Part shown: in pieces, positions 19,001 through 23,400 of the stretch
Layout: every line of letters starts with the position of its first letter
Numbering within the stretch: the stretch's first letter is position 1
Assembly: GCF_009931435.1 (NCBI RefSeq)
Contig: NZ_CP043414.1
Origin: Escherichia coli
GTDB taxonomy: Bacteria > Pseudomonadota > Gammaproteobacteria > Enterobacterales > Enterobacteriaceae
Direction: 5' to 3' (one strand)
DNA: 64,000 bases
Notes under the pieces: model-generated
Databases searched by the model: none
Told to the model about the DNA's origin: nothing
The model's input: the letters and a program-made list of their open reading frames with translations, nothing else
Made by a program: the position numbers and the translations under genes

Positions 19001-20453
19001 CAGCCAGGCTATCCAGCTGCCAAATACAAAAGCGGAAAGCATTACCTGGAATGAAGATCAAAAAGGCATTTATACCGCAACGTATACCGCTTTACTTCCT
19101 GGCACCGGTTTAAAAGCACAGCTACAGATGTCCGGCTGGGCGAGCGCCCTGACTTCAAATGTTTACAGTATTAGTGGCGATGCCGCCAGCGCACAAATTG
19201 TCTCGATGCAAGTGACAACGGGTAACCCGGATGTGCTGGCGAATGGTAGCGATCAACATACGGTGAATGTTCGGGTGGAAGATCAGTTTGGCAATGTGCT
19301 GCCGGAGCAGACTGTCACCTTTACGGTGACGAAAGGGGCGGCTGTATTTGCCAATGCAAGGCAGAGCGCAGATATCAGGACGGATGCGCATGGCATGGCA
19401 GAGGTTGATCTGAGCAGTACCGTAGCGGATGCCAGCACTGTTGAGGCTAAGGTCAATCAAAGCAGCGATAGTAAAACGGTGAACTTTGTTGCTGATGTTA
19501 GTACGGCGCGTATTGCTGATCTGGGGGTAACGCAGGATAACGCGGTGGCAGACGGCGCGACAGAGAACATGCTGTGGGTGAAAGTCACCGACGCGTTCGG
19601 TAATGCGCTGGGCGGGCAGACGGTCAGCGTGTTGGCGGACAACGGCGCAACGGTCGCTCCGACGGTGATTACAGAGCCGGACGGCACGGTGGAGATCAGT
19701 GTCACCAGCCAGACGGCGGGCACCAGTGCCGTCACTGCAACCATCAACAGCAGCAGCCAGAGCCGGGATGTGACGTTTATCGCCGATGTCAGGACGATGA
19801 AGATAGCGGATCTGGTCGTTAGCCAGGATAACGCGGTGGCAGACGGCGCGACGGCGAACACGCTGCAGGTGAAGGTGACCGATGCGTTCGGGAATGCGCT
19901 GGGCGGACAGACGGTCAGCGTGACGGCAGGCAACGGCGCAACGGTTGCTCCGACGGTGATTACAGAGCCGGACGGCACGGTGGAGATCAGTGTCACCAGT
20001 CAGACGGCGGGAGCCAGTACTGTCACTGTCAGCATCAACAGCAGTACCGCGAGCCGGAACGTCACGTTTATCGCCGATGTCAGCACGGCGCAGATCGCGA
20101 GTCTGGAGGTGACGCAGGATAACTCAGTGGCTGACGGCGCAATGGCGAACACGCTGCGGGTGAAGGTCACCGATGCTAACGGGAATGTACTTGCCGGGCA
20201 GACGGTCAGCGTGACGGCAGGCAATGGCGCAACGGTCGCTCCGACTGTCATCACAGGGCAGGACGGCACGGTGGAGATCAGTGTCACCAGCCAGACGGCG
20301 GGCACCAGTACAGTCACCGCCAGCATCAACAGCAGCAGCCTGAGCCGGACCGTGACGTTTATCGCCGATGTCAGGACGGCGCAGATAGCGGATCTGGTAG
20401 TCACCCGGGATAACTCAGTGGCAGACGGTGCACGGCGAATACGCTGCGGGTGA
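16041..20453 (+). CDS. air: Giant inverse-autotransporter (intimin/invasin family) adhesin with Ig-like repeats, 5' segment up to a frameshift
   Basis: N-terminal LysM-like segment (ARFGITVDELRRLNQF), beta-barrel region, then Big_1-type repeats; ORF ends inside a repeat at a 1-bp deletion (~20432); start codon uncertain. Confidence 0.75.
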   Translation: MAGKAHGNGDRRGDKTICGLGDRLRRLTAGICLITQTIFPVMAAAPTHVNPAHSDTAASLILSNVKTIPYTLGALESPPTVAARFGITVDELRRLNQFRTFARGFDNVRQGDEIDVPLINSNSPEARNLKAMQMERDGKDPQMQVAEVAQQSGTLLARDMDSEQAASMARGWVASSASAQATDWLSRWGTARVSLGVDEDFSLKSSSFEFLHPWYETPDNLVFSQHTLHRTDDRTQTNHGIGWRYFTSSWMSGVNMFIDHDLTRYHTRTGMGVEYWRDYLKLSGNGYLRLSNWRSAPELDNDYEARPANGWDLRAEGWLPAWPQLGGKLVYEQYYGDEVALFGKDERQNDPHAITAGLSYTPVPLISFSAEQRQGKQGENDTRIGMELTLQPGQSLQKQLDPAEVAARRSLVGSRYDLVDRNNNIVLEYRKKELVRLTLTDPLKGKPGEVKSLVSSLQTKYALKGYDIEAASLQSAGGKVAVSGKDIQVTIPPYRFTVMPETDNTYPITVIAEDSKGNFSRREESMVVVEKPTLSLADSTLSVDLQILLADGKSISTLTYTARDSSGKPIPGMTLKTHAKGLQDFALSEWKDNGNGTYTQLVTSGKTSGALSLMPQFNGDDVAKTPALIAIVANMASRADSMIETDQNNYVAGKPIGVKVTLKDENGNGVTGRKELLKQAVKVDNTKTDAVSAWTEESEGVYKANYTAHLIGDKLTAQLTMPGWQTKHSDAFSIAGDKDTAKIAAMQITANNAVARRDHNTVAVTVRDVHQNLLQGQNVTFTVVNGAAVFADPNGGIVTTDKDGIASVNLASDQAVNSLIKAEINGSSQSVEVSFITGDISQLTSTIKTDDVSYTAGGKIKVSVTLMDEQKNLVKGMASLLVGSGVVEVSGTDKNETGNWSEESDGVYTTTRTAKIAGNSHYATLKLSTWSSAQQSDAYVIRESGAVLAYSSIVTDKTTYTAGGAIKVTVTLKDSYENLVGGQRDAISQAIQLPNTKAESITWNEDQKGIYTATYTALLPGTGLKAQLQMSGWASALTSNVYSISGDAASAQIVSMQVTTGNPDVLANGSDQHTVNVRVEDQFGNVLPEQTVTFTVTKGAAVFANARQSADIRTDAHGMAEVDLSSTVADASTVEAKVNQSSDSKTVNFVADVSTARIADLGVTQDNAVADGATENMLWVKVTDAFGNALGGQTVSVLADNGATVAPTVITEPDGTVEISVTSQTAGTSAVTATINSSSQSRDVTFIADVRTMKIADLVVSQDNAVADGATANTLQVKVTDAFGNALGGQTVSVTAGNGATVAPTVITEPDGTVEISVTSQTAGASTVTVSINSSTASRNVTFIADVSTAQIASLEVTQDNSVADGAMANTLRVKVTDANGNVLAGQTVSVTAGNGATVAPTVITGQDGTVEISVTSQTAGTSTVTASINSSSLSRTVTFIADVRTAQIADLVVTRDNSVADGARRIRCG

Positions 20454-23400
20454 AGGTCACCGATGCGTTCGGGAATGCACTTGCCGGGCAGACGGTCAGC
20501 GTGTTGGCAGGCAACGGCGCAACGACTGCTCCGACGGTCACCACGCAGCCGGATGGCACGTTGGAGATCAGTGTCACCAGCCAGACCGCCGGAACCAGTG
20601 TGATCACCGCCAGCGTCAACAACAGCAGCCAGAGCCGGAACGTGACGTTTATTGCGGATGTCAGGACGGCGCAGATCGCGAGTCTGGAGGTGACGCAGGA
20701 TAACGCCGTGGCTGACGGCGCAATGGCGAACACGCTGCGGGCGAGGGTGACCGATGCGTTCGGTAATACGCTTGCCGGACAGGCGGTCAGCGTGTTGGCG
20801 GATAACGGCGCAACGGTCGCTCCGACTGTCATCACAGGGCAGGACGGCACGGTGGAAATCAGTGTCACCAGCCAGACGGCGGGCAGCAGTGCGGTCACCG
20901 CCAGTATCAACAGCAGCAGTCAGAGCCGGGACGTGACGTTTATCGCGGATGTCAGGACGGCGAAGATCGCTGATCTGGTGGTCACCCGGGATAACTCAGT
21001 GTCTGACGGCGCAATGGCGAACACGCTGCAAGTGAAGGTTACCGATGCTAACGGTAATACGCTTGCCGGGCAGACGGTCAGCGTGACGGCAGGCAACGGC
21101 GCAACGGTCGCTCCGACTGTCATCACCGGGCAGGACGGGACGGTGGAAATCAGTGTCACCAGCCAGACGGCGGGCACCAGTGCGGTCACCGCCAGTATCA
21201 ACAGCAGTACCGCGAGCCGGAACGTCACGTTTATCGCCGATGTCAGCACGGCGCAGATCGCGAGTCTGGAGGTGACGCAGGATAACTCAGTGGCTGACGG
21301 CGCAATGGCGAACACGCTGCGGGTGAAGGTCACCGATGCTAACGGGAATGTACTTGCCGGGCAGACGGTCAGCGTGACGGCAGGCAATGGCGCAACGGTC
21401 GCTCCGACTGTCATCACAGGGCAGGACGGCACGGTGGAGATCAGTGTCACCAGCCAGACGGCGGGCACCAGTACAGTCACCGCCAGCATCAACAGCAGCA
21501 GCCTGAGCCGGACCGTGACGTTTATCGCCGATGTCAGGACGGCGCAGATAGCGGATCTGGTAGTCACCCGGGATAACTCAGTGGCAGACGGTGCAATGGC
21601 GAATATGCTGCGGGCGAGGGTCACCGATGCGTTCGGTAATGCGCTTGCCGGGCAGACGGTCAGCGTGTTGGCGGACAACGGCGCAACGACTGCCCCGACG
21701 GTAATCACAGAGCCGGACGGCACGGTGGAGATCAGTGTCACCAGCCAGACGGCGGGAGCCAGTACTGTCACTGCCAGCATCAACAGCAGCAGCCTGAGCC
21801 GGAACGTGACGTTTGTCGCGGATGTCAGGACGGCGAAGATCGCGGATCTGGTGGTCATTAAGGACGGCTCAGTGGCAGATGGCGCGATGGCGAATATGCT
21901 GCGGGCGAGGGTCACCGATGCGTTCGGTAATGCGCTTGCCGGGCAGACGGTCAGCGTGTTGGCGGACAACGGCGCAACGACTGCCCCGACGGTAATCACA
22001 GAGCCGGACGGCACGGTGGAGATCAGTGTCACCAGCCAGACGGCGGGAGCCAGTACTGTCACTGCCAGCATCAACAGCAGCAGCCTGAGCCGGAACGTGA
22101 CGTTTGTCGCGGATGTCAGGACGGCGCAGATCGCTGATCTGGTGGTCATTAAGGACGGCTCAGTGGCAGATGGCGCGATGGCGAACACGCTGCGGGTGAA
22201 AGTCACCGACGCGTTCGGCAATGCGCTGGCCGGACAGACGGTCAGCGTCTCAGCGGACAACGGGGCAGCGGTTGCCGCGACGGTTATCACCGGGCCGGAC
22301 GGCACCGTGGAAATCTCCGTCACCAGCCAGACGGCGGGCATCAGTACAGTTACCGCAACCATCAACAACAGCACTCTGAGCCAGAACGTGACGTTTATTG
22401 CTGATGTCAGCACGGCGAAGATCGCGGATCTGGTGGTCATTAAGGACGGCTCAGTGGCAGATGGTGCGATGGCGAACACGCTGCGGGTGAAAGTCACCGA
22501 CGCGTTCGGCAATGCACTGGCCGGACAGACGGTCAGCGTCTCAGCGGACAACGGGGCAGCGGTTGCCGCGACGGTTATCACAGAGTCGGACGGCGCGGCG
22601 ATAATCTCCGTCACCAGCCAGACCGCCGGAGCCAGTACGGTCACTGCCAGCATCAGCAACAGCACTCTGAACCAGAACGTGACGTTTATTGCTGATGTCA
22701 GCACGGCGAAGATCGCGGATCTGGTGGTCATTAAGGACGGCTCAGTGGCAGATGGTGCGATGGCGAACACGCTGCGGATGAAAGTCACCGACGCGTTCGG
22801 CAATGCGCTGGCCGGACAGACGGTCAGCGTCTCAGCGGACAACGGGGCAGCGGTTGCCGCGACGGTTATCACCGGGCCGGACGGCACCGTGGAAATCTCC
22901 GTCACCAGCCAGACGGCGGGCATCAGTACAGTTACCGCAACCATCAACAACAGCACTCTGAGCCAGAACGTGACGTTTATTGCTGATGTCAGCACGGCGA
23001 AGATCGCGGATCTGGTGGTCATCAAGGACGGCTCAGTGGCAGATGGTGCGATGGCGAACACGCTGCGGGTGAAAGTCACCGACGCGTTCGGCAATGCACT
23101 GGCCGGACAGACGGTCAGCGTCTCAGCGGACAACGGGGCAGCGGTTGCCGCGACGGTTATCAGCGGGCCGGACGGCACCGTGGAAATCTCCGTCACCAGC
23201 CAGACTGCGGGCATCAGTGCCGTTGCCGCCAGCATCAACAACAGCAGTCTGAGTCAGAATGTGACATTTATCCCGGATGTCAGCACCGCGAAGATCGCGG
23301 ATCTGGTGGTTATTAAGGACGGCTCAGTGGCTGACGGCGCAATGGCGAACACGCTGCGGGTGAAGGTCACCGATGCATTCGGTAATACGCTTGCCGGGCA

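Follow-up and report, generated by a model that had tools for sequence, protein, structure and literature searches.

The window analysed here is a stretch of 64,000 nucleotides (nt) of Escherichia coli DNA (assembly GCF_009931435.1, contig NZ_CP043414.1), and its subject is the adhesin gene iatC, which is split by a frameshift inside an array of repeats. Two plus-strand open reading frames (ORFs), at 16041-20453 (1,470 amino acids, aa) and 20450-25717 (1,755 aa), lie in different frames and overlap by the four nucleotides GTGA, and both translate as runs of ~97-aa immunoglobulin-like (Ig-like) repeats. They are the halves of one 9,677-nt gene that is 1 nt short of an intact 9,678 nt, or 3,225 codons. 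Chance cannot produce a pair of adjoining ORFs that encode Ig-like repeats over 1,470 and 1,755 codons. The native frame picks up again at 20433, and the GTG at 20450 is merely the first start codon past the TAA at 20411.

One iatC gene in two reading frames

Evidence for the loss of a single base came from the repeat array. Tandem Repeats Finder detected an array with a 291-nt period at 19518-23560 (13.9 copies, 88% matches). In-register cutting gives a length of 291 nt for 13 of the units and of 290 nt for unit 4 (20391-20680); the motif anchors flanking unit 4, at 20133 and 20714, are spaced 581 nt, which is 2 x 291 - 1. The missing base is located between 20432 and 20433, where GGTGCA meets CGGCG, and the premature stop of the 5' ORF is the TGA at 20451-20453. 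Across the junction the window allele reads GGTGCACGGCG, with a left flank of unit-3/7 type and a right flank of unit-4 type. A preliminary description of this DNA had proposed a 1-bp deletion dividing an adhesin gene of ~3,200 codons within a repeat, and the length of unit 4 and the two ORFs bear this out. Several of its details need correction. The 18-mer GACGGTGCACGGCGAATA, which it placed at 20421-20437, lies at 20424-20441. Its statement that every other repeat reads GACGGTGCAATGGCGAA(C/T)A holds only loosely, since the motif is exact in one unit, present with at most two mismatches in eight more, and more divergent in four (for example GACGGCGCGACGGCGAACA). It was right that the array has 14 units, but these are not near-identical: pairwise identity ranges from 77 to 100% and is mostly 78-90%.

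This gene is not a new adhesin but iatC, which is already known from E. coli. The 5' ORF scored 2615.5 bits against NCBIfam NF040978 (the Ve_IatC_Nterm equivalog domain), over profile positions 1-1065 of 1065; the curated cut-off of this model is a whole-protein score of 2400 bits. The same ORF contains the PF11924 inverse autotransporter (IAT) beta-barrel at residues 149-423 (E = 1.9e-108), followed by multiple Big_1 / Invasin_D3 matches. Near the end of the 3' ORF there is a match to PF21764 Invasin_D4 (E = 2.5e-12), and the final 200 aa align with residues 298-481 of Yersinia invasin 1CWV, the D4-D5 region (E = 1.1e-21); the D4-D5-like receptor-binding cap (C-type-lectin-like) is encoded by the 3' ORF only. 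Scores of the window gene against intimin models were under their cut-offs. The order nepI-iatC-eilA is the same as in the RefSeq-annotated genomes RMDEC465, 2017-02-2CC and R32_14_1F. The gene is present in ~750 of the 5,426 complete E. coli genomes, annotated as iatC, or as air/EaeX for the sister allele group, and in those genomes the locus lies between nepI and eilA, beside the eip type III translocator genes.

The iatC of E. coli SMS-3-5 (EcSMS35_4024) has been cloned; its product is surface-located, promotes biofilm formation on over-expression and is encoded at a conserved chromosomal position (Goh et al. 2019, PMC6714894). A periplasmic LysM domain on the N-terminal side of the barrel marks a subgroup of large inverse autotransporters (YeeJ, IatC, IatD), and the same study reports LysM in IatC; in the window, the Pfam LysM match is partial (residues 81-98 of the 5' ORF, E = 0.6). 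The two proteins share the IAT beta-barrel, Big_1 repeats, the lectin/invasin-like cap, the chromosomal site and possibly a LysM-like region, but the SMS-3-5 protein is intact at 2,934 aa, whereas the window allele, with a full length of 3,225 aa, is frameshifted after residue 1464. Goh et al. found no evidence of repeat-number variation, whereas the present comparison shows differences of whole 291-nt units between genomes. In other strains, intact iatC measures from 8,223 to >12,000 nt, mostly in steps of one unit, and unit order and composition form a recombination mosaic between strains. Equal-length genes in 2013C-4282, in 2020CK-00188 and at two further loci (L027 and L028) proved to be unrelated mosaics. 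In the annotations of 18 RefSeq complete genomes, iatC/air is intact in 17 (in one with a later annotated start), truncated in one and frameshifted in none.

A donor-matching patch ends at the missing base

Genomes of the same clone were retrieved by exact-protein look-ups with EilA, a 383-aa eip-locus protein and NepI. Six other assemblies of this clone, identical or near-identical to the window on both sides of the site, carry an iatC that is open or intact there, and all six read GGTTCGACGGCG in frame (Gly-Ser-Thr-Ala). The preliminary description had called for such a comparison with orthologues; the sequence it expected at the site, the canonical CAATGGCG, is not the one found in the clone-mates. 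The closest of these assemblies to the window is GCA_021109565.1, which has an intact iatC ORF of 9,678 nt (3,225 aa). It shows no differences from the window at 4654-20187, 20433-25717 and 25718-37258 (~32 kb), while the 245-nt interval 20188-20432 holds 35 substitutions and a 1-nt gap at its 3' edge. The complete genome CP057959.1 likewise has an intact iatC encoding 3,225 aa, with an identical protein in a second complete genome, and outside the patch it differs from the window at only two positions in ~30 kb. In ERZ28586055, GCA_030511265.1 and GCA_016664965.1 the ORF is open through the site up to the contig end, and in GCA_002965045.1 an intact iatC of 2,934 aa is read in frame through it.

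All 35 substitutions are private to the window, and all 35 equal the window's own sequence at 21351-21595 (units 7-8). This donor sequence is the same in the window and in GCA_021109565.1, as expected of a non-reciprocal exchange, and the array length was kept, with 14 units in both genomes and 9,677 versus 9,678 nt. As a result, 20034-20432 and 21197-21595 are now 100% identical over 399 nt, at an offset of four units minus 1 nt; the first 154 nt of this repeat (20034-20187) are common to both sites in the clone-mates too. Past the missing base, identity to the donor is ~88% and identity to the ancestral unit 4 is 100%. The sequences at this point are GGTGCA-A-TGGCG in the donor, GGTTCG-A-CGGCG in the ancestral recipient and GGTGCA-CGGCG in the window, and the lost base is the sole A that separates the donor-specific from the recipient-specific nucleotides. 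That the tract ends exactly at the missing base is the main point, and one that the preliminary description had overlooked.

These data support a model in which an intragenic gene conversion, or a template switch, ended out of register and thereby caused the frameshift, an event recent and private to this genome; we assign this model a probability of about 0.7. A non-reciprocal exchange would have placed a copy of 245 to 399 nt of units 7-8 over the paralogous part of units 3-4. It would probably have started within the 154 nt already common to both sites, since this tract is shared ancestrally with the donor region and would supply homology, and it would have ended after GGTGCA at unit position 42, where donor and recipient match poorly. 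The strand would then have rejoined the recipient one nucleotide out of register, with loss of the shared A at unit position 43. The molecular route may have been strand invasion followed by misaligned return: plausibly, the new strand, which ended in GGTGCA, annealed again with its last A placed against the recipient's next A, the in-register partner being G. The gene has one lesion only, and not the multiple lesions or degradation that mark a decaying pseudogene; the 5,285 nt downstream of the junction are identical to the intact allele of GCA_021109565.1, which indicates that the event is recent.

Two other routes to the same sequence were considered. The first is a point deletion that was independent of a pre-existing conversion tract and merely adjoins it. 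Both events are private to the window, and the available sequences are compatible with either order. Nevertheless, the in-frame hybrid unit (GGTGCAACGGCG with these flanks) is absent from the 5,426 complete genomes and from all fetched loci, and no base other than the deleted one separates the flanking informative sites, so that an independent deletion is extremely improbable. The second is a one-unit deletion of 292 nt from an A-B-C arrangement of units like that of R32_14_1F, which is present in two genomes and would account for the sequence with 3 mismatches in 581 nt. This candidate was dropped because the clone-mates show an unchanged array length and the patch only.

Several points weigh against a conversion with an out-of-register end. 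The junction was seen in no other public sequence searched, so that one assembly supports the lesion. Precision is the rule in gene conversion, and an untemplated loss of 1 nt at the end of a tract is unusual. The two differences between the window and CP057959.1 fall in unit 10, which is 99.3% identical to unit 12; this discrepancy could be assembly ambiguity, so mixing of paralogues by the assembler is possible at this locus. Finally, both the export of the truncated stalk and its functional impairment are predictions.

Further variation within the clone was observed in the same array. The two differences from CP057959.1 are at 22174 and 22196 and make units 10 and 12 the same in CP057959.1, either through a second, in-frame homogenisation of paralogues in the clone or through the ambiguity just mentioned. 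The iatC of GCA_002965045.1 (locus 11750-20554) has flanks of 3.5 kb, 2.1 kb and 7.3 kb that are 100% identical to the window and an array of 11 units, without units 9, 11 and 13. This is either a true contraction or a short-read collapse via perfect repeats of 240 and 244 nt, which in the window are the direct repeats 21596-21835 = 21887-22126 and 22197-22440 = 22779-23022. The 240-nt repeat starts exactly at unit position 43, the position of the frameshift junction, which suggests that unit position 43 may be a recurrent mosaic boundary.

Assembly error, recoding and switching

Because lone frameshifts are a common class of error in adhesin genes that are long and repetitive, it is important to consider whether consensus building or polishing in the repeat array introduced the 245-nt patch, or the edge base alone, while the organism's iatC is intact with 3,225 codons. 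The confinement of the junction to one sequence is consistent with such an artefact, as are the intact clone-mates. Moreover, the short-read contigs of clone-mates break within the array, many public drafts reduce it to contigs of ~300 bp, and clone-mate assemblies disagree at the level of paralogues in units 10/12. Searches for the junction elsewhere were negative. An 81-nt junction query against the 5,426 complete E. coli genomes gave a best match of 96.3%, with the extra base; the exact junction 41-mer was found in none of the GTDB species representative genomes, JGI metagenomes or 46 fetched loci; the exact 1,470-aa ORF was absent from the gene-position index; and a 69-aa junction peptide, compared with a set of 5.8 billion proteins, matched in-frame repeat fragments only, plus one fragment from a noisy assembly.

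Other features of the data argue against an artefact. The preliminary description had based its suggestion of an assembly error on the near-identity of the repeats, but the converted stretch differs from the ancestral state at 35 of 245 positions. With a divergence of 14%, reads should not be confused, and cross-mapping between the copies is not expected. A de Bruijn path from the left part of unit 8 to the right part of unit 4 is not possible; the longest common k-mer is ~8 nt. The remaining 4-kb array matches an independent assembly base for base. In ~45 kb of compared flanks there are no frame-disrupting coding indels, which makes a random consensus error unlikely: in the 16 kb upstream, indels relative to the 98.4%-identical R32_14_1F are intergenic only, with none in coding sequence; the eilA/eip/yicS/nlpA/yicL/setC genes are all of reference length; and the 14 kb at 50000-64000 differ from the corresponding sequence of E. 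coli RX24 by 11 substitutions and 0 indels. By contrast, in the error-rich assembly GCA_014857325.1 every gene at the locus is broken into fragments. Given one error in the gene, we estimate that a random 1-nt consensus error would hit that particular base in ~1 in 10^3 to 10^4 cases. An artefact is thus unlikely, and it is quite probable that the lesion is genuine; we infer that it lies in the DNA of the organism and was not introduced by assembly. If it were an artefact, the organism itself would be expected to carry the 35 ancestral bases and GGTTCGACGGCG.

Two side observations concern the assemblies themselves. In GCA_014857325.1 (JACXXX010000001.1, 5.36 Mb), adeQ, nepI and iatC are all broken up into dozens of short ORFs, as seen in long-read assemblies that have not been polished. 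The start of iatC is at 16041 in the window and at 48041 in CP057959.1, an offset of exactly 32,000 nt, which would fit a window that spans 32001-96000 of a similarly rotated chromosome-level, hence long-read or hybrid, assembly.

The preliminary description had left open whether the split reflects phase variation or pseudogenisation. Pseudogenisation is consistent with the data, with a lesion that is private and a gene that is intact in the clone-mates and in 17 of 18 RefSeq genomes, whereas classical phase variation is not supported, there being no simple sequence repeat or homopolymer. Specifically, 20380-20470 contains no homopolymer of at least 4 nt and no 2-6-nt motif repeated at least 3 times, and no slippery heptamer of the form X XXY YYZ occurs between the TAA at 20411 and the TGA at 20453. 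Two features might nonetheless be taken to favour slipped-strand variation or programmed recoding, by a frame shift of the ribosome or of RNA polymerase: the ORFs overlap in GTGA, and the shifted frame has three consecutive rare codons, CGG CGA ATA. However, the sole permissive interval, 20414-20453, is free of homopolymers of at least 4 nt, 2-6-nt tandem repeats and X XXY YYZ heptamers, so that slipped-strand phase variation of the classical kind is excluded, as are the usual signals for recoding, and the absence of an A/T run at the site argues against transcriptional slippage. A restart at the GTG at 20450 was rejected for want of an evident ribosome-binding site; no Shine-Dalgarno-like sequence precedes this codon, and a 3' product initiated independently would be without signal peptide and barrel. 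A promoter scan near the junction found no internal promoter-like site, and not more sites than in shuffled sequence. Expression across the junction by any of these routes therefore deserves next to no credence.

A different form of phase variation would be recombinational ON/OFF switching, in which out-of-register Big_1 exchanges are a recurrent, selected means of silencing iatC and the 399-bp repeats permit frequent RecA-mediated reversion. Removal of the 1,163 nt between the 399-bp copies eliminates the junction and yields an open ORF of 2,837 codons. Since the two copies could recombine in this way and reopen the gene, the lesion is potentially reversible. Conversion has extended the perfect homology from 154 to 399 nt, and unit number and order vary among strains, even within the clone. 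While these observations are consistent with a switch, a frameshifted iatC/air occurs in none of the 18 sampled RefSeq complete genomes (the one defective copy being truncated), the clone-mates are in frame in six of six cases, and all other units examined are exactly 291 nt. In addition, the reverse step, from ON to OFF, needs another imprecise event, so the switch would not be symmetric. Recurrent, selected switching is accordingly improbable, and no evidence for a selected switch was found. There is a slim chance that imprecise exchanges among diverged Big_1 units act as a recombinational OFF switch, with RecA-dependent reversion to an in-frame allele of 2,837 codons and 10 units; if so, IatC would be toggled and resized by its own repeat array, and not simply lost.

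Neighbouring features, related systems and consequences

The features of the locus are collected in Table 1.

Table 1. Features at the iatC locus, in window coordinates
Feature	Position	Strand	Basis
iatC (inverse autotransporter adhesin IatC), frameshifted, 9,677 nt	16041..25717	+	NF040978 score, synteny, clone-mate ORFs of 9,678 nt
5' ORF, 1,470 aa: N-terminal region, IAT beta-barrel, ~6 divergent Ig-like domains, units 1-3, 14 residues of unit 4, then RRIRCG and stop	16041..20453	+	translation, PF11924, Big_1 / Invasin_D3
3' ORF, 1,755 codons: remaining unit 4, units 5-14, ~5 divergent Ig-like domains, invasin D4-D5-like tip	20450..25717	+	ORF list, PF21764, 1CWV match
Fourteen-unit array, 291 nt per unit (97-aa Big_1 domains) except for unit 4 with 290 nt	19518..23590	+	Tandem Repeats Finder, in-register cutting
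Converted patch (recipient), 35 substitutions versus clone-mates, all donor-matching	20188..20432	+	clone-mate alignment
Junction, one base missing; last donor-specific base 20432, first recipient-specific base 20433	20432..20433	+	alignment
399-bp perfect direct repeat, copy 1	20034..20432	+	self-comparison
399-bp perfect direct repeat, copy 2 = donor (end of unit 6, whole of unit 7, 42 nt at the start of unit 8)	21197..21595	+	self-comparison; unchanged versus clone-mates
Premature TGA of the 5' ORF	20451..20453	+	sequence
Hairpin with 12-bp stem between convergent iatC and eilA, terminator-like on both strands	25731..25758		sequence
eilA (HilA-family regulator), intact, 565 aa	25769..27466	-	exact protein sequence present in many E. 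coli assemblies
nepI, intact upstream neighbour of iatC	14654..15838	+	synteny, exact-protein look-up

Upstream of the adhesin gene, between yicN and nepI, a RelE/ParE-family toxin (119 aa) and an overlapping helix-turn-helix antitoxin (107 aa) are encoded on the minus strand at 13760-14426, as they are in iatC-positive relatives. Two intergenic C runs differ in length from R32_14_1F: at 15889, in the nepI-iatC intergenic region upstream of iatC, the run is C5 versus C4, and at 4795 it is C3 versus C4. Downstream of setC, at ~37260-50000, lies a CP4-like integrative island whose cargo comprises DUF4942, a CbtA/CbeA toxin-antitoxin pair, a RadC/JAB gene, an antirestriction gene, DUF932 and a GTPase gene. 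This island is absent from GCA_021109565.1, which runs on into yicJ/yicI, and is present in variant form in CP057959.1. The remainder of the window, 50000-64000, is an accessory block 99.9% identical to RX24, with H-NS-family and dGTPase-family genes, a thymidylate synthase gene with an adjacent hypothetical, an XRE regulator, a MazG-like gene and a DEAD/DEAH helicase gene that runs past the window end; judged by gene content, the block looks like a defence island of the nucleotide-depletion type. Within it, an IS3-family element on the minus strand (~54523-55684) holds 8 of the 11 substitutions relative to RX24. Its transposase is annotated as 'frameshifted' in RX24, which is probably the usual programmed -1 orfA/orfB arrangement and not damage. 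A transfer RNA (tRNA) scan of the window found none, so selC does not lie inside it.

Comparison with better-known systems helps to place the split gene. In 2006 Sheikh et al. reportedly described eilA and air, and Air/EaeX of enteroaggregative E. coli 042 is said to be regulated by EilA and to contribute to aggregation and adherence. Air/EaeX resembles the window gene as a large Ig-repeat inverse autotransporter adjoining eilA in the selC-linked eip/eilA locus; RefSeq, however, keeps air and iatC as separate allele families, and the window gene fits the iatC N-terminal model. With the type Ve proteins Yersinia invasin and intimin of enteropathogenic E. coli, IatC shares the PF11924 barrel, and its D4-D5-like tip matches invasin, but its stalk is much longer (~25 Ig-like domains) and in the window the tip is out of frame with the barrel.

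Variation by gene conversion is well known for repeated surface-protein genes such as Neisseria pilE/pilS and Borrelia vlsE. As in those systems, a paralogous segment appears to have been copied non-reciprocally into an expressed surface-protein gene with the donor unchanged. Unlike in those systems, the iatC donor and recipient are units of one ORF, neither a dedicated silent cassette nor an initiating element is present, and the outcome is a frameshift and not an antigenic variant, with no evidence of programming. Simple-sequence contingency loci also produce an ON/OFF outcome through a change of reading frame in a surface-protein gene, whereas the iatC site has no simple-sequence tract and no gain or loss of units in a short repeat.

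In the window, residue 1464 is the last to be translated in the native frame, and a stop follows after 6 further codons (RRIRCG). This would yield an inverse autotransporter of 1,470 aa that comprises the barrel, ~six divergent Ig-like domains and units 1-3 (~9 Ig-like domains in all). Missing are the distal 1,761 of the 3,225 native residues, with ten and a half of the repeat units, the ~five distal Ig-like domains and the tip that resembles invasin. Export of type Ve passengers starts at the barrel-proximal end, as established for intimin and invasin. The shortened stalk may for this reason still be displayed, without its presumed binding module.

The window thus presents a strain-private inactivation of iatC, an ordinary kind of event whose origin is unusually well resolved: donor, recipient and junction can be read base by base because near-isogenic intact relatives exist. 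For annotation, the two ORFs should be merged as iatC, frameshifted (pseudogene), and not listed as two adhesins. Knowledge of inverse autotransporters is unchanged by this case, which documents how an exchange between an adhesin gene's own repeats inactivates it. It also shows that, inside a single clone, IatC arrays are altered in steps of whole units and through paralogous patches, a point that bears on how the presence of air/iatC is scored as a virulence marker from draft genomes.

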